From assembly GCA_963709585.1 (NCBI GenBank), contig CAVPXI010000006.1:96001-160000 (forward strand): a DNA stretch of 64,000 bases, read 5' to 3'. The notes beneath the pieces were generated by a model. That model saw only the letters and a list, made by a program, of their open reading frames with translations. It had not been told where the DNA came from and searched no databases. This stretch comes from Candidatus Dormiibacterota bacterium. Lineage in GTDB: Bacteria > Chloroflexota > Dormibacteria > Aeolococcales > Aeolococcaceae. Numbering within the stretch: position 1 is the first letter of the stretch; every line of letters begins with the position of its first letter. Below, one piece after another: positions 8,338-60,900 of the stretch. The position numbers and the translations under genes are program-made.

Positions 8338-8517
8338 ATGTCCCGAACCACGCCGATGACCGTCGATGCCACGTGCGCGCGCTGCGACGGCACCCGGGTC
8401 ATTCCGCTGACCTTCGGCGATCGTCAGACCGGCTACGAACAACCCGGATACAAGTGCCCCGATTGCGGTGCGCGCTTTCAAGCCCTGCACAACCAGCGAC
8501 TTCCGCGCCCGATCTGA
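8338..8517 (+). CDS. 59-aa zinc-ribbon microprotein (CxxC-x24-CxxC)
   Basis: Manual translation MSRTTPMTVDATCARCDGTRVIPLTFGDRQTGYEQPGYKCPDCGARFQALHNQRLPRPI; fills intergenic gap; homologue at 58311-58451. Confidence 0.7.
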   Translation: MSRTTPMTVDATCARCDGTRVIPLTFGDRQTGYEQPGYKCPDCGARFQALHNQRLPRPI

Positions 8518-18128: not shown

Positions 18129-18203
18129 CGGGAAGTAGCTCAGCCAGGTTAGAGTGCACGGTTCGGGACCGTGAGGTCGGGAGTTCGAATCTCCCCTTCC
18201 CGA
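18129..18203 (+). tRNA. tRNA-Pro(CGG)
   Basis: CGGGAAG/CTTCCCG acceptor, CACGG-TTCGGGA-CCGTG anticodon arm, GGGAG-TTCGAAT-CTCCC T arm; CCA not encoded. Confidence 0.95.
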
Positions 18204-18234
18204 CGGTTTCGCAACCTCGGCATCGCCTTTCCCG

Positions 18235-19292: not shown

Positions 19293-19367
19293 GGCCCCGT
19301 AGCTCAGTGGATAGAGCAGAGGTTTCCTAAACCTTGTGCGCAGGTTCGATTCCTGCCGGGGCTACCA
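19293..19367 (+). tRNA. tRNA-Arg(CCT)
   Basis: GGCCCCG/CGGGGCT acceptor, GAGGT-TTCCTAA-ACCTT anticodon arm, GCAGG-TTCGATT-CCTGC T arm, encoded CCA. Confidence 0.95.
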
Positions 19368-55350: not shown

Positions 55351-55491
55351 GCGATGAATATAGGCGCCGGGTGTTGGGAGAACGGGCGCCGACGCCGCAG
55401 CCGGCGGCACGACGCGGTGGTCCGGCGACGCGGCGACCTACACAAATCCGGGCAATGATATACTTGACGCACCGCGCGAGGGCAGCCCAGA

Positions 55492-55728
55492 ATGGCTGAT
55501 CTTGAAGGTCGCACCATTGACATTCGGGCGTTCGGAGCCATCGGCGACGGTATGGCCGACGACGGCGCGGCCATTGCCGCAGCCTTTGAAGTAGCGTTCG
55601 GAAGTGATCCTCGCGTATCAGGTCCTGCGTCACCTATCCAACCTCCAGGGGGTGACGGATGCGAGCATCCAGACGACTTGCCCCCAATGCGGGGTGGCTC
55701 TGACACTGGCGGAGGCGACGGTCGCTGA
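55492..55728 (+). pseudogene. Fragment with N-terminal motif of pectate_lyase_3/tailspike-type beta-helix proteins
   Basis: DIRAFGAIGDGMADDGAAIAAAF followed by non-homologous tail. Confidence 0.5.
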
Positions 55729-55942
55729 GGAGCGCGAAGTGACCGTCTACCGTTGCCCCAGAGACAAGGCCATCGTGATGCTGGTCACGCCGACCGGGAT
55801 CGACCCGGTTCCGGGATCGGGCTACCGTATTGGTGCCGAGGTTCTCCGCAATCCTGCGGATATCTATCTGAGCGTCGTCGGATCAGCGAACAAGGTGGGT
55901 TTCCCGGCCTCTCCCCACGCCCTCGACGGCTGGAGCCAGTAG
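55652..55942 (+). CDS. Small Cys-motif (CPQC...CPRD) IS passenger protein
   Basis: ORF ends just before transposase promoter; start uncertain. Confidence 0.6.
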   Translation: MTDASIQTTCPQCGVALTLAEATVAEEREVTVYRCPRDKAIVMLVTPTGIDPVPGSGYRIGAEVLRNPADIYLSVVGSANKVGFPASPHALDGWSQ

Positions 55943-55957
55943 CAGAATACTAGGTAC

Positions 55958-55986
55958 TTGACACACTGCTCATTAGGTAGTACACT
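55958..55986 (+). promoter_or_regulatory. Sigma70-type promoter of transposase (leaderless)
   Basis: TTGACA-17 bp-TACACT, 6 nt before ATG 55993. Confidence 0.8.
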
Positions 55987-55992
55987 CACCTT

Positions 55993-56937
55993 ATGAGTTC
56001 GGAGCGGTTCCCCACCACCCTCCTGGCGGCTGTCAGGTACTTCGAGGACGAGGCTGTGTGCCGCGAGTTCCTCGCAGGGCTGCGCTGGCCGGTCGCCGTG
56101 TCGTGCGTCTTCTGCGGCTCGGAGAAGGTCGGGCACATCGCCACGCGGGCGCTGTGGCGCTGCAAGGACTGCCGTAAGCAGTTCAGCGTCAAGAAGGGGA
56201 CGATCTTCGAGGACTCCCCAATCCCCCTCTCCAAGTGGCTGCCTGCGATCTGGCTCTATTCAGCCGGCAAGAAGGGCCGCAGCTCGCACCAGCTCGCCCG
56301 CGATCTCGGCATCACCCAGAAGTCCGCGTGGTTCATGAGCCACCGCATCCGGCTCGCCATGGAGACGGAATCCTTCGACGCGCCGTTGTCGGGTGAGGTC
56401 GAGGTGGACGAGACCATCATGGGTGGCCACGACCAGAACAAGCACTCCTACCTTCGCCGTGGCACCTGGGGCAAGCAGGTCGGGAAGGTGGCTGTCATGG
56501 GCCTCTTGGAGCGCGGCGGCGACGTGCGGGCGAAGATGGTCCCCTCGCGCACTAGCGCCCGTCTTCAAAAGGAGATCCGTAGCAACGTGGCCCTCGGCTC
56601 CATCCTGTACACCGACGCGTTCGCTTCTTACCGTCACGGGCTCGAAGCCGATTACATCCATGAGGTTATCGACCACTCCGAGGAGTACGTCCGTGGGCGT
56701 GTCCATACCAATGGCATCGAGAACTTTTGGAGCTTGTTCAAGCGCGTGATCTACGGCACCCACCATTCCGTCGAGCCTTTCCACCTTGACCGCTACCTCG
56801 ACGAAACGGTCCTTCGGTTCAACACGCGCAAGATGACCGACGCTGGTCGGTTCTCCCTTACCGCTGCTCGCACGACTGGCCGTCGCATCACCTACAAGCA
56901 ACTCACCGGGAAGCTCGAAGAAGGAGCCATCGCGTGA
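55993..56937 (+). CDS. IS1595 family transposase
   Basis: Zn ribbon CVFC..CKDC, HTH (QLARDLGITQKSAW), VEVDET, LYTD, HTNGIENFW, YLDE..RFN. Confidence 0.95.
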   Translation: MSSERFPTTLLAAVRYFEDEAVCREFLAGLRWPVAVSCVFCGSEKVGHIATRALWRCKDCRKQFSVKKGTIFEDSPIPLSKWLPAIWLYSAGKKGRSSHQLARDLGITQKSAWFMSHRIRLAMETESFDAPLSGEVEVDETIMGGHDQNKHSYLRRGTWGKQVGKVAVMGLLERGGDVRAKMVPSRTSARLQKEIRSNVALGSILYTDAFASYRHGLEADYIHEVIDHSEEYVRGRVHTNGIENFWSLFKRVIYGTHHSVEPFHLDRYLDETVLRFNTRKMTDAGRFSLTAARTTGRRITYKQLTGKLEEGAIA

Positions 56938-57101
56938 GCGCCGCCAAATCGAGGCCGCCTCCATCGCCGCCCGACGAAGGGCAGTTCAGGAGTTTCGTGA
57001 CACGGCTCCTCCGCGTGACCAAGAGCGAAATCGACGCGAAGGAAGCGACACGCAAACGTAGACCGCCGCGCAAGGGCGGTGATAAGGTCAAGCCCGACTA
57101 G
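56934..57101 (+). CDS. 55-aa basic protein coupled to transposase
   Basis: GTGA overlap; FRSFVTRLLRVTKSEIDAKE followed by basic tail. Confidence 0.65.
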   Translation: MSAAKSRPPPSPPDEGQFRSFVTRLLRVTKSEIDAKEATRKRRPPRKGGDKVKPD

Positions 57102-57116
57102 GCTTCGGCCTCGTTT

Positions 57117-57163
57117 GGAGGGACCCGGGGGGCTAGGCGCAAACCAAACCCCCGGGGCCTTCC
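57117..57163. terminator. GC-rich hairpin between convergent IS genes
   Basis: GGAGGGACCCGGGGG...CCCCCGGGGCCTTCC, ~15-bp stem; no U-tract. Confidence 0.4.
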
Positions 57164-57272
57164 TCGTATCTGGACAGATTCGCCGCATCGACCGCCCCGC
57201 GCTCCAGCGGTCTGCGAGCCAGCTAACTCATACGCGGTTCGGTTCTTCCACAGGCATCACATCGCTCCTTTG

Positions 57273-57704
57273 CTAACTCAGGTCTGCGGGCTTGGATAGC
57301 ATCTTGTTCGAGAGCTTCCAGATGCTCGGCGCCCACTGACCGTCGCCCTGGCGTTCTGCTACTAGAACGCTCTGCTTCTGAAGGTCATGGAGCGCTTGAC
57401 GCAAGGTCTCCTTTGACGCCTTGCCCTCCCTGTTGCCCCCGAGCCATCCTCTCTTGAACATCTCATTGGCAAGGTCGCTGAGCAGCCATCCACGATTGCC
57501 GCTCTCGCGAAGAACAGTAACCGCGCCCTCGCGGATGGACGGACGCGCCCCGTTGGTTGTTGGGTTCGCGTACGGGGCAGGCGGTCCCGCGTAGTCCTCC
57601 AAGCCGATTATCAGGTTCTGGATCTTCGCCGCCCGCTCATGCAGCGTGTTCAGCTCAGCTCTCAACTCAGCGAGCGCGATGGTCATATGCTCCGAGGTGG
57701 CCAT
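57273..57704 (-). CDS. Coiled-coil plus winged-helix DNA-binding protein (IS passenger)
   Basis: GGAG RBS; N-terminal heptads; SIREGAVTVLRES..LSDLANEMFKRGW..TLRQAL..IWKL wHTH pattern. Confidence 0.65.
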   Translation of the reverse strand: MATSEHMTIALAELRAELNTLHERAAKIQNLIIGLEDYAGPPAPYANPTTNGARPSIREGAVTVLRESGNRGWLLSDLANEMFKRGWLGGNREGKASKETLRQALHDLQKQSVLVAERQGDGQWAPSIWKLSNKMLSKPADLS

Positions 57705-57734
57705 TTCCTAACTCCTTGGCTAGAATGGACGAGC

Positions 57735-57803
57735 GCCCCCGTCCGGAGTTCGAACCGGAAACCCCGACCTTCGAAAGCTGGGTCCAGATCCTCTGGCGGG
57801 GGC
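57735..57803 (-). ncRNA. Non-canonical tRNA-like RNA (TCG in anticodon position)
   Basis: Acceptor GCCCCCG/CGGGGGC, D hairpin CCAG-AGGAT-CTGG, imperfect anticodon arm around TTTCGAA, T arm TCCGG-TTCGA(A)CT-CCGGA. Confidence 0.7.
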
Positions 57804-57862
57804 GCTACACATTCTGAACTCCTCCCTGTGTTCAGCGCAAGGGGGGCTGTAGGGGATACAGG

Positions 57863-57874
57863 GAACAGGCGTTC
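57863..57874. promoter_or_regulatory. LexA-type SOS box inside IS
   Basis: Perfect GAAC-AGGC-GTTC; near-identical to box at 19619-19630. Confidence 0.6.
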
Positions 57875-58121
57875 TATCACTACCCCCCATATAGCGCGAT
57901 ATGGCCCGAGTCACCCTCCCCCATAAGGGCTTTGGAACCCTACGGTGAATATGGGACTCGACGCGTGCGGTGCCCTCACACGGGTGCGTCAGGCTGAACG
58001 CTGGGGGCCGGGCAACGCCCCGGCGGACGTTCGGGGAATGTACGGCCCGATCGCCAAGAGGGTTTGAGTGGCTCGCCCGGCCCTCCCGATCAGCATAGAC
58101 AGTCGAGGCTTGCCGTGCGGG

Positions 58122-58307
58122 CTAGACCGACCCATATCGTCGGCACTCAGAGCATCGTCGTCGCCCACCCTGGCCTAGCGTCTCCCGGTGATCCTCAAGG
58201 ATCTTCTGCGCTCGCTGGCACTCGCTCCGGTCGTGGTAGACCGCGGTGGCGTCCTTCCCGTAGCGAGGGTTGTCGATGCCCGTGTGAAACGCTGGGAGGA
58301 TCGCCAT
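58122..58307 (-). CDS. 61-aa His/Cys small protein (YHD...C...CxxC)
   Basis: PAFHT..VYHDRSEC..GQGGRRRCSEC; 3 nt downstream of the 58311 ORF. Confidence 0.7.
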   Translation of the reverse strand: MAILPAFHTGIDNPRYGKDATAVYHDRSECQRAQKILEDHRETLGQGGRRRCSECRRYGSV

Positions 58308-58310
58308 GAC

Positions 58311-58451
58311 CTATATCGAAGCTTTCGGCTTAAAGATCCGCGCGCCGCACCCGACGCACTTGTGAGCAGGGCGTTCCTCGGGCGGGATCAACTCGGCTTG
58401 GTCAAAGTTCAGCGGGATGATCCGCTTGCTTCCGCACCCCGCACAGGTCAT
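58311..58451 (-). CDS. 46-aa zinc-ribbon microprotein (may start at GTG 58481)
   Basis: Manual translation MTCAGCGSKRIIPLNFDQAELIPPEERPAHKCVGCGARIFKPKASI; homologous to 8338-8517. Confidence 0.7.
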   Translation of the reverse strand: MTCAGCGSKRIIPLNFDQAELIPPEERPAHKCVGCGARIFKPKASI

Positions 58452-58648
58452 CGCTAGGCGCTTAGGGCTACGAACCGCCACAGTGTGAGGACGGTACCGG
58501 GGGAGGGAGTGGCTGTCGGTGCGCTACCGAACCCTAGGAATGGTGTGTCAACTATATCGTTGCCCAAATCCGTATACTCTCGAGAAGCCGGGATCCACCC
58601 GGTGCGGCCGGTGGGGCGACTGTCAGAGCGAACCTTTGGAGGTAGCCC

Positions 58649-59036: not shown

Positions 59037-60900
59037 GTGCCACCTCCTCTCGTGCCAGGCGAAAAGCGCCGGCCAGACATCCGCAACGTCGCGATCATCG
59101 CGCACGTCGACCACGGCAAGACGACGCTTGTCGACGCCCTGCTCAAGCAATCGCGAGTCTTCGCCGCCCACGAACAGGTCGGCGAGTTGATCATGGATTC
59201 GAACGATCTCGAGAGGGAGAAGGGAATCACGATCCTCGCCAAGACCACTTCGGTTCGCTACAACGGGGTCAAGCTCAACATCATCGACACCCCGGGCCAC
59301 GCCGACTTCGGGGGCGAGGTCGAGCGAAGTCCTTGGGATGGCGGACGGGTGCCTGTTGCTGGTCGACGCCGCCGAGGGCCCGATGCCGCAGACGCGGGTC
59401 GTGCTTCGCCAGGCGCTCGCTCTCGGCCTGCAGCCGATCATCGTGGTCAACAAGATCGACCGCACCAACGCCCAGCCGGCCGAGACGGTCGAGGCCACGC
59501 ACGACCTGCTGCTCGAGCTTGCCAAGGAGTCGTGGCAGCTGGACGCGCCGATCCTCTACACCGACGCTCGCGAGGGCACCGCGACCGCCGACCTCACGCA
59601 CGCGGGCGTCACGCTCGAGCCCCTCCTCGACGCCATCCTCGAGCACGTGCCGCCGCCCCTCGCGGACCCCGACGGCCCCCTGCAGATGCTGGTGAGCAAC
59701 CTCGACCACGACAACTGGAGCGGCCGGCTCGCGCTCGGGCGGATTCAGCGAGGCACCGTGCATCCCGGACAGAGCGTCGTCTCCTGCACGGCGTCGGGTG
59801 CGGGGCGGATCGAACGGATCGCGACGGTGCTCACCGTCGAGGCGCTCCAGCGCCTGTCGGTGGAGTTGGCGTCCGCCGGCGAGATCGTCTACCTCTCTGG
59901 ACTCGCGGCGGTTGCCATCGGCGACACCATCGCCGACGCCGAACATCCCGAGGCTTTGCCGCGCCTCGAGATCGGCGAGCCGACGCTGCGGATGCAGTTC
60001 TCGGTCAACCAGTCACCGCTCGCCGGGCGCGAGGCAACCGTGAGCAGCACGTCACGACAGCTGCGCGCGCGCCTGGAACGGGAGTTGCTGACCAACGTCG
60101 CGTTGCGGGTCGAGGACGGGCCGACCGCCGACATCTTCGACGTGAGCGGACGCGGCGAGTTGCATCTCGCGATCCTCATCGAGACGATGCGCCGCGAGGG
60201 GTATGAGTTCGAGGTGTCGCGACCGGCGGTGATCACCAAGGAGGTCGACGGCGAGCGCGTGGAACCCGTCGAGGATTGCGTCATCGACTGCTCGGCGGAC
60301 GTGGTCGGCGCCATCACCGATGCACTCGGCAGTCGCGGGGCAAAGATGACCGCGATGCGAACCGACGCCGGGGGCGGTGTGCGCCTGACCTACCACGCGC
60401 CAACTCGCGCGCTCATCGGTTTGCGCAGCCAGATCCTCACACTGACACGCGGCACCGGCGTGATGGCGACACGGCTGCTCGGCTGGGAGCGCACCTGGGC
60501 GCTGCCCACGACGACGCGCGGCGGCGTGCTCACCGCGAGCCAACCGGGAACGGCTGTCGCCTACGGGCTGGTGACCCTCCAGGAGCGAGGGCAGCCGCTG
60601 ATCGCGCCGGGCACGCCGGTCTACGAGGGCATGATCGTCGGGCTCAACCGCCGGCCTGGGGACATCCACCTCAACGTGACCAAGCAGAAGCAGAAGACCA
60701 ACATCCGGTCGTCCACCGAGGACATGACCATCCGCCTGGTACCACCACGCAAGATGTCGCTCGAGGAGTGCCTCGACTTCATCATCGACGACGAGCTCGT
60801 CGAGGTCACGCCCGTGGGCATCCGCATGCGCAAGCGCGTGCTCAACGCGGACGAGCGCAACAAGCTCCGTAAGCGCTCGATGGCGACCGAGGCCGGTTAG
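59037..60900 (+). CDS. typA: Translational GTPase TypA/BipA; +1 insertion at 59326-59331
   Basis: [54 protein letters not shown]. Confidence 0.95.

Follow-up and report, generated by a model that had tools for sequence, protein, structure and literature searches.

A recent IS1595-family transporter insertion sequence in a Dormibacterota genome, with a transposase and basic protein core and probably layered passenger DNA

The window analysed here is a stretch of 64,000 nucleotides (nt) from a Candidatus Dormiibacterota bacterium (contig CAVPXI010000006.1, positions 96,001 to 160,000); the genome that holds it is denoted G000, and all genomes compared are metagenome-assembled genomes (MAGs). 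Positions 55451-58564 of the window (3,114 bp) are an intact transporter insertion sequence (tIS) of the IS1595 family, which entered an intergenic CAAATCCG target in one piece. The site is empty in relatives and a metagenomic contig skips exactly 3,122 bases, so that the insertion must be recent and is probably still polymorphic in the natural population. It is highly probable that we are dealing with a recent, intact IS1595 tIS in which a core of transposase and small basic protein is accompanied by layered passenger DNA.

The insertion and its empty site

An initial annotation of this region had claimed a complete and probably recent IS1595 transporter element, and both parts of the claim were borne out by the ends of the element, its exact target-site duplication (TSD), its intact transposase and the distribution of its empty site. 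An 8-bp TSD and terminal inverted repeats, left (IRL) and right (IRR), place the element in the IS1595 family, and its outer repeats agree with the inverted-repeat consensus of the clade of related elements described below. The passenger genes lie within the inverted repeats as one unit with the transposase, and all of this cargo falls within the 3,122 bases missing at the empty site. G000 contains one full copy.

The empty site, which the annotation had proposed to look for in relatives, was sought by searching the element with 1-kb flanks against 40 relatives, 24 of them from the same genus. Both flanks were found on one contig, at most 100 bp apart, in 18 of the 24 same-genus genomes, with a spacing of 44-99 bp compared to the 79 bp expected without the element. 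Three unpublished genomes (G027, G032 and G036) are counted only in tallies over relatives. The joint is particularly clear in G015, where the left-flank match stops and the right-flank match starts on one single CAAATCCG, such that the flanks overlap by this 8-mer. A soil-metagenome run, X2, supplies the corresponding evidence from a natural sample: one 300-nt contig joins 55442 to 58565 with 3,122 bases skipped and no mismatches, and further X2 contigs contain parts of the window element that show no differences from it. No RNA source was listed: all six sequencing runs contain small shares, the two labelled RNA-Seq may be DNA, and their contigs carry no expression information.

The transposase aligns with all 153 positions of the Pfam family DDE_Tnp_IS1595 (PF12762, 1-153/153, 4.6e-38) and carries the N-terminal Zn_ribbon_IS1595 domain (PF12760, 1.3e-11, 44.7 bits against a cut-off of 25.4); it also matches the NCBIfam model transpos_IS1595 (NF033547) at 2.8e-58, with 197 bits against a cut-off of 75. 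The near-consensus promoter that had been annotated upstream was recovered as TTGACA (55958-63), a 17-nt spacer and TACACT (55981-86), agreeing with the consensus at 10 of 12 positions. This promoter ends 6 nt before the transposase ATG, which suggests that the transposase mRNA would be leaderless or nearly so. The best annotated plasmid-borne relative of the transposase in PLSDB is 43.8% identical and is labelled only 'IS1595 family transposase'; the element does not match a characterised, named insertion sequence (IS), a match that would have told against the initial annotation.

The element thus has every IS1595 feature that could be tested, works like an IS1595-family tIS and is one. It shares with IS1595 tIS a DDE transposase with an N-terminal zinc ribbon, an 8-bp TSD, inverted repeats starting with GG, and a load of passenger genes that have no part in transposition and travel together with the IS. 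The insertion as such is ordinary: judged by PLSDB plasmid annotation it is close to no named IS, and its kind is already known, the tIS concept for IS1595 being cited in PMC3129680. It differs from described tIS in its two internal relic ends and in a basic protein of approximately 55 residues that occurs throughout its clade, and no account of a conserved small protein, of relic ends or of tRNA cargo in IS1595 was found in the literature searched. It also documents an active IS1595 transporter element in a little-studied, Dormibacterota-type soil lineage. The leads for further work are the two-gene core, the capture of arms with promoter-bearing relic ends, and the recurrent pairing of tRNA or tRNA-like cargo with winged-helix proteins.

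Table 1. Features of the IS1595 element and its target site, in window coordinates.
Feature	Position	Strand	Remark
Left TSD copy, CAAATCCG	55443..55450		Exact match to right copy; joint in X2 contig has 8 common letters
IRL, 23 bp, GGCAATGATATACTTGACGCACC	55451..55473	+	20/23 against IRR
Relic start of pectate-lyase/tail-spike-like beta-helix gene, ~35 residues recognisable	55492..55600	+	Weak matches
112-aa CxxC...CxxD protein, DUF6510-like	55604..55942	+	Pfam DUF6510 4.2e-6, 27.0 bits against cut-off of 26.4
Relic left end, now transposase promoter	55945..55986	+	Same layout in G016/L044, L045 and L046
IS1595-family DDE transposase, 314 aa, intact	55993..56937	+	Pfam, NCBIfam
55-aa basic accessory protein	56934..57101	+	Start overlaps transposase stop (GTGA)
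143-aa protein, N-terminal long helix and probable winged-helix (HARE-HTH-like) domain	57273..57704	-	Weak profile match
tRNA-sized 73-nt structured element	57733..57805	-	Strand doubtful; 9-bp terminal stem, T-arm-like hairpin, UU-UCG-AA loop
GAAC-N4-GTTC, GAACAGGCGTTC	57863..57874		Only SOS-box candidate in element
Non-coding block	57922..57975		~85% or more conserved with G016
Relic right end of core, CCTGACGCACC and CGTGTGAGGGCAC	57970..57993	-	Inner half of inverted repeat and subterminal motif
~100-nt non-coding element 'seg'	58002..58109	-	Adjoins zinc-ribbon genes elsewhere in genus
61-aa H/C-x...CxxC protein	58122..58307	-	Paralogs on G000:C13 (64%) and C14 (50%)
56-aa four-Cys zinc-ribbon protein	58311..58481	-	Orthologs beside same type of end
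IRR, 23 bp, reverse complement GGCAACGATATAGTTGACACACC	58542..58564	-	20/23 against IRL
Right TSD copy, CAAATCCG	58565..58572		Exact

A clade of elements with a small basic protein

The element is one of a large clade of tIS from soil bacteria. A transposase search of species-representative genomes recovered a family set of 80 loci, in which inverted repeats and duplications were scored by a boundary script; an element was taken as defined when its inverted repeats matched at 18 or more of 23 positions and its TSD at 7 or more of 8. Counts over these relatives are not independent of one another. The nearest loci belong to Candidatus Dormibacterota/Dormibacteria MAGs, and most of the others to Pyrinomonadaceae and further Acidobacteriota. 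Ends could be defined in 52 of the 80, giving elements of 1,995-5,918 bp whose duplicated targets resemble CTAATTAG, being AT-rich and palindrome-like with a consensus of approximately C-T-A-A-T-T-A-G over the 52 loci. Variable right-hand cargo, 993-4,940 bp in length, is present in all 52 defined elements, so that the clade is made up of tIS throughout. The left end lies 36-61 bp from the transposase ATG in 50 of the 52, the remaining distances being 710 bp (L045) and 721 bp (L046). Cargo is confined to the downstream side in 50 of the 52 members; in contrast, and as the initial annotation had said, the window element has cargo on both sides of its transposase, with the left arm 5' and everything from the basic protein to the right arm 3'. 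Subgroup names in the family include ISNwi1+ and ISPna2+. Passenger-carrying IS1595 groups were reportedly treated as tIS by Siguier, Gagnevin & Chandler in 2009 (Res Microbiol 160:232).

Cargo in the clade was surveyed with Pfam on the 109 cargo open reading frames (ORFs) of at least 110 aa in the other elements, 39 of which matched a family. Many of these families seem to be defence- or toxin-antitoxin-like: DUF3800 (8 ORFs), AIPR (2), GmrSD, HNH, PIN (2), SocA/Panacea (2), AAA_21 with RloB, two DNA methylases (one an Mrr fusion), Schlafen-AlbA_2, and IrrE/M78 with DUF4411. Further families, uncharacterised or with another role, are DUF7689 (3), DUF6941 (3) and HARE-HTH. Nested transposases, of the IS66 family and of the rve integrase type, occur in the cargo at L107 5927-7357 and L110 7295-8530. 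With so many defence- and toxin-antitoxin-like genes and occasional tRNA genes among their cargo, these elements are possible shuttles of immunity-related genes in soil bacteria.

Two side observations concern the same loci. The elements at L046, L076 and L118 have tRNA genes 100-250 bp away. Cargo ORFs of approximately 270-310 aa in L055, L059, L067, L068 and L104 have no Pfam match and share the C-terminus W-R-N-x2-S-H-(S/T)-R, and BLAST clustering places this protein in six elements; its ending resembles, by eye, the HEPN R-x4-6-H motif.

The second gene of the core encodes a protein with the motif F-x2-F-x6-L-x-V-P/T-K-x-E-(I/L)-D followed by a Lys/Arg-rich tail. The annotation had described it as a basic ORF coupled to the transposase, and the overlap with the transposase stop codon is real and the protein is a feature of the family at large. 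A profile seeded by 20 ORFs found a member in 50 of 55 elements (the 52 defined ones together with G000, G016/L044 and G039), 20 of these being the seeds, which match by construction, and 30 being further matches. Stand-alone copies number 46, of which 33 directly follow the transposase, 13 on the same strand and 20 on the opposite strand; the ORF overlaps the transposase stop codon in four elements. In G039, L086 and L107 the motif instead forms the C-terminus of proteins of 360-378 aa. The counterpart in G016 is 62% identical. A collection of 5.8 billion proteins yielded 138 relatives, for which all source-given names but one read 'hypothetical protein'; none of the 138 has a Pfam family, and clade members gave no convincing Pfam match. 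Our best guess is that this protein acts as a DNA-binding accessory or regulatory factor of transposition. It could represent a cofactor or regulator that has so far been missing for transposition of the IS1595 type.

Relic ends, RNA and winged-helix cargo, and rival explanations

The closest relative of the window element is a 3,728-bp element of the same genus, G016:C12 (= L044), whose transposase is 91-92% identical. Homology between the two covers 55950-57091 (transposase and 55-aa gene, 85% at the nucleotide level), the 143-aa gene (55% at the amino acid level), 57696-57804 (85% by BLAST) and 57923-57980, and none was found elsewhere in the element. The two thus have in common the transposase, the 55-aa protein, the winged-helix-like protein, the tRNA-like element, the conserved block and both relic ends. 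They differ in their outer arms, which are unrelated, and the G016 element has no TSD at its ends. Its left arm of 1,235 bp contains a further relic end together with two ORFs, one lipoprotein-like and one aspartyl-protease-like, and its right arm of approximately 400 bp contains another ORF.

The shared core stops at sequences that resemble ends of the element. On the left side, inverted-repeat positions 11-23 survive in CTAGG-TA-CTTGACACAC (55950-55966), where they now form the -35 region of the transposase, and this relic left end stands equally far from the transposase ATG in G016, L045, L046 and G000. The internal TACTTGACACAC was considered as a chance promoter and rejected, as four subclade elements have it at the same distance of 48 nt from the ATG. 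On the right, the relic end lacks the outer 12 bp of the inverted repeat and the homology with G016 stops there; in G016, CCTGACGCACC-GTGCGAGGGCGC lies approximately 410 bp inside that element's own right end. The relic ends, at 55957 and 57993, therefore occupy homologous places in the two elements. The subterminal motif CG(Y)GCGAGGGCAG recurs in two more places, next to another internal relic of G016 and, as CGCGCGAGGGCAG, next to the left end that the G000 element has today; this left end is therefore classed as of the 'right-end type', like the internal relics.

On these observations the cargo is a mosaic, comprising a core common only to one 92%-identical relative and two arms that lie outside it. 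In the inner core, the transposase and the basic protein would be joined by a winged-helix-like protein with a coiled coil and by a structured RNA derived from a tRNA; on either side of this core stands a relic end in which only the promoter-bearing inner part of the repeat is left. The left arm adds a relic gene start and a DUF6510-like zinc protein, the right arm a non-coding element and two zinc proteins, and each outer arm closes with a complete inverted repeat. We infer that the passenger DNA was assembled in layers, with arms acquired from other elements, or from remnants with a single end, either by nesting in them or by recombining with them; the basic protein would assist or regulate transposition, and the passengers would have no joint 'addiction' function. 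Relic ends of this kind illustrate one route by which tIS may gain and swap cargo.

Several findings weigh against this account. The layering is read from a pair of close relatives and from four motifs that are just 11-24 nt long; direct repeats around the inner core, looked for by eye, were not seen, so that an insertion of this core within some older element is conjectural. Of the 33 basic-protein genes that directly follow the transposase, 20 are on the opposite strand, which argues against obligatory translational coupling. The empty-site evidence from X2 is one 300-nt contig, and X2 may be the window's own source sample. Finally, the 73-nt RNA is approximately 93% identical between the two elements compared to 85% for the transposase gene; this is more than neutral passenger DNA would show, so that the winged-helix and tRNA-like pair may have a function.

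The pair itself was described in the initial annotation as a winged-helix protein and a tRNA-like RNA, the first of which is plausible and the second only weakly borne out. For the 143-aa protein, the predicted topology and a weak match to HARE-HTH (PF05066, E=0.0066, 17.3 bits) favour a winged helix; the match is below the cut-off of 25.9. Its AF2 model, of low confidence (pLDDT 59.9), has a helix-helix-helix-strand-strand C-terminal half, and HARE-HTH is its neighbour by ESM features (0.89). Foldseek with this low-confidence model returned nothing at E<=0.001, the best E being 0.45, although DNA-binding proteins with a winged helix or another kind of helix-turn-helix dominated the top rows. 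Only two other database proteins are closely related to the 143-aa protein (83-85%), and a metagenome scan gave 393 pattern matches, none of which was confirmed.

The 73-nt element is located upstream of the 143-aa gene, at a distance of 28 nt from its start, and differs from its G016 counterpart by, among other changes, two compensatory double changes in its 9-bp terminal stem. Standard ARAGORN found no gene in it, and Rfam RF00005 was without a match, whether searched over 4 kb (E<=1) or over 151 nt (E<=10); a Deinococcus Y-RNA row in the Rfam output (18 bits against a cut-off of 80) was dismissed as noise. The tRNA-like call stands in the mitochondrial mode of ARAGORN (-mt) only, which for G000 and G016 alike reports, at matching positions of the minus strand, a D-loop tRNA-Arg(tcg), in a mode that makes approximately one loose call per 10 kb; of its 8 calls in the 64-kb window, 2 are true tRNAs. 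The ordinary tRNA genes of the window, Pro(CGG) at 18129-18204 and Arg(CCT) at 19293-19367, served as positive controls for ARAGORN. The strand of the 73-nt element is doubtful, since a promoter-like site at 57698-57726 on the plus strand points into it (TTGCCA-17-TAAAGT in G016) and the fold is better on the plus strand (z -4.2, compared to -1.6 on the minus strand).

True tRNAs occur as cargo elsewhere in the clade. That of L123 (Rfam 59.9 bits) is divergent from a 143-aa HARE-HTH protein (PF05066, 2e-6), and that of L059 (6745-6820, Rfam 59.4 bits) follows an ORF that by eye looks like a coiled coil with a winged helix. Aligned to the L123 and L059 tRNAs, the G000 minus strand gave z scores of 4.1 and 5.6, and to a tRNA of L047 called by ARAGORN only, 3.3; the plus strand gave 1.3, 3.3 and 2.5 with the same three. 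The winged-helix-like proteins of G000, L123 and L059 have no pairwise similarity (BLASTP E 1.0-9.5). A DNA search of the 116 other family genomes found the 73-nt element in G016 only, and the 67 metagenome loci that share an 18-mer with it are taken as chance matches because the similarity never extends beyond 19-32 nt. In our reading, the element would be a decayed or diverged tRNA-derived RNA, kept together with a DNA- or RNA-binding protein. For the L059 cargo tRNA, ARAGORN gives a 4-nt anticodon (tccg), i.e. an 8-nt anticodon loop.

A possible, if doubtful, extension of this reading is that the tRNA-like RNA and the coiled-coil winged-helix protein form a selected module of the clade, descended from a cargo tRNA gene. 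Such a module might supply or mimic tRNA-Arg, for example as a decoy for an anticodon nuclease, or might control the regulator next to it, acting as an antisense partner or as a signal for processing. The conservation of the RNA, with compensatory stem changes beside a protein conserved at just 55%, is consistent with this, as are the true tRNAs near HARE-HTH or winged-helix-looking ORFs in the distant L123 and L059, the minus-strand alignment scores against cargo tRNAs and the Arg(tcg) call in both elements. It is opposed by the failure of standard ARAGORN and Rfam to call a tRNA, the looseness of the permissive mode, two mismatches in the anticodon stem and a shortened D arm, the dissimilarity of the three proteins, the doubtful strand, and the presence of the element in just one of 116 other family genomes and in none of the 67 metagenome loci. 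A selected module of this kind is compatible with the layered-tIS explanation for the rest of the element. Unlikely, in our judgement, is the broader proposal of a two-gene transposon clade, made up of the transposase and the basic 'VPK-motif' protein and not of a one-gene IS with arbitrary passengers, that grows onion-like, uses its old ends as promoters and carries, in distant members too, a tRNA or tRNA-Arg-like RNA with a coiled-coil winged-helix protein as a module that could have a counter-defence or self-regulatory role; if it were true, new end-bearing arms would be captured, old ends would lose their outer 12 bp, and both ends would be expression slots for exchangeable cargo.

The initial annotation had gone further and suggested that the RNA, the regulator and the zinc microproteins could be a stress-responsive regulatory or addiction module. 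Taken as one SOS-controlled module by which the element would secure its place in the host, this is in our view very unlikely. The GAAC-N4-GTTC core does stand between the tRNA-like element and the conserved block, related boxes (AGAACATCCGTTTG and GTACAAATGTTC) lie upstream of host lexA and recA, and the cargo of relatives often includes toxin-antitoxin- or defence-like families such as PIN, SocA/Panacea, AAA_21 with RloB and IrrE/M78 with DUF4411. However, the box is one of 52 such sites in G000, lacks the GAACAT-type AT-rich centre of the likely LexA boxes of the host and is altered in the nearest relative, G016, and it is probably a chance occurrence. None of the seven proteins tested matched any PADLOC model or a known toxin or antitoxin family in Pfam or NCBIfam, and the zinc-ribbon genes and the winged-helix/RNA pair have different histories and different relatives, so that they were not inherited as one unit. 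The annotation had made its proposal depend on a combination of cargo conserved between copies; cargo was instead found to differ between related elements, which largely refutes the proposal on its own terms, with only the transposase, the 55-aa protein, the winged-helix protein and the tRNA-like RNA shared, and with one relative, and with the left and zinc-ribbon arms unshared.

It is scarcely credible that there is no mobile unit at all, and that an IS1595 copy and some small genes have been juxtaposed by accident or by a chimeric assembly, with outer repeats that are chance matches or remnants. Internal relic ends do mark earlier boundaries elsewhere, and at least one frameshift of 1 nt, that of typA, lies close by in the assembly. 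Against this, exactly 3,122 bases between two 8-mers are missing in G015 and in the X2 contig, the outer repeats fit the clade consensus, and an exact 8-bp duplication is a hallmark of the family, all 52 defined relatives having a TSD of at least 7/8.

The outer arms and neighbouring features

The left arm (55451-55944) contains an inward promoter-like site, TTGACG-18-CAGAAT, formed by the left repeat and 55464-55493. The beta-helix gene fragment annotated next to it is backed by weak matches only: Pfam PF12708 at E=0.03 (residues 9-33) and ten PHROGs tail or virion families at E 0.002-0.08. The three Cys-rich microproteins of the initial annotation are plausible, the 112-aa protein of this arm being just over the DUF6510 cut-off and the 61-aa and 56-aa proteins of the right arm having paralogs or orthologs that keep the Cys residues. 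With the 112-aa protein as query, no copy was found in the 116 other family genomes. PADLOC, PHROGs and NCBIfam gave no usable family for the cargo.

The right arm extends over approximately 57994-58564, with all its parts on the minus strand. Its non-coding element, 'seg', was found in 9 of 42 genomes of the genus, or in 8 of 41 if G000 is not counted, usually beside zinc-ribbon genes and on the strand of these neighbours. Its core, GAGGGCCGGG…CCCGGCCCCC, also occurs at G000:C13:101454-101560 and at loci L126-L131, L135 and L137. We take 'seg' as not coding since its indels are not multiples of three. Its fold has 23 pairs, with 93% of cells paired compared to 35-61% with slid partners; covariation did not exceed what shuffling yields, with 49 of 500 shuffles attaining the observed level, and no Rfam family matched.

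The two zinc-protein genes of this arm have relatives of their own. The 61-aa protein has seven database homologs (64-75%), of which the two with source-given names are each a 'hypothetical protein', and a 45% homolog lies in the left arm of L045. The gene for the 56-aa protein stands beside the same type of end at G017:C206, G022:C104, G117:C87 and, truncated, G000:C15, and seven further tblastn matches to the protein were found in G000. At these four places, where just one end was found in each, an inverted repeat, the 56-aa zinc-ribbon gene and the non-coding element form a one-ended unit with no close transposase nearby, similar to the transposase-less IS derivatives that are named in PMC3129680. 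To judge by their appearance, the one-ended units either gave rise to the right arm or are remains of it.

Some features of the host genome were recorded alongside. The typA/bipA GTPase gene of the window (59037-60900) is split over two frames by a 1-nt shift near 59325, after …GGEVER, so that it is a pseudogene unless the assembly contains an indel here. Zinc-ribbon proteins of 55-90 aa (CxxCG-x2-R-x-IPLTF … KCxxCG) form a multi-copy family that is spread across the host, at window 8338-8517, at four places on G000:C13, and on C23 and C15; at C13:145635-146521 a member is paired with a paralog of the 61-aa family. In L002 (G000:C15:174263-177465), positions 1501-1703 are a solo right end made up of the inverted repeat and the first 42 zinc-ribbon codons. 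This solo end stands in place of the 3' end of a response-regulator/adenylate-cyclase-like gene and lies directly against what by eye is an apparent tRNA gene.

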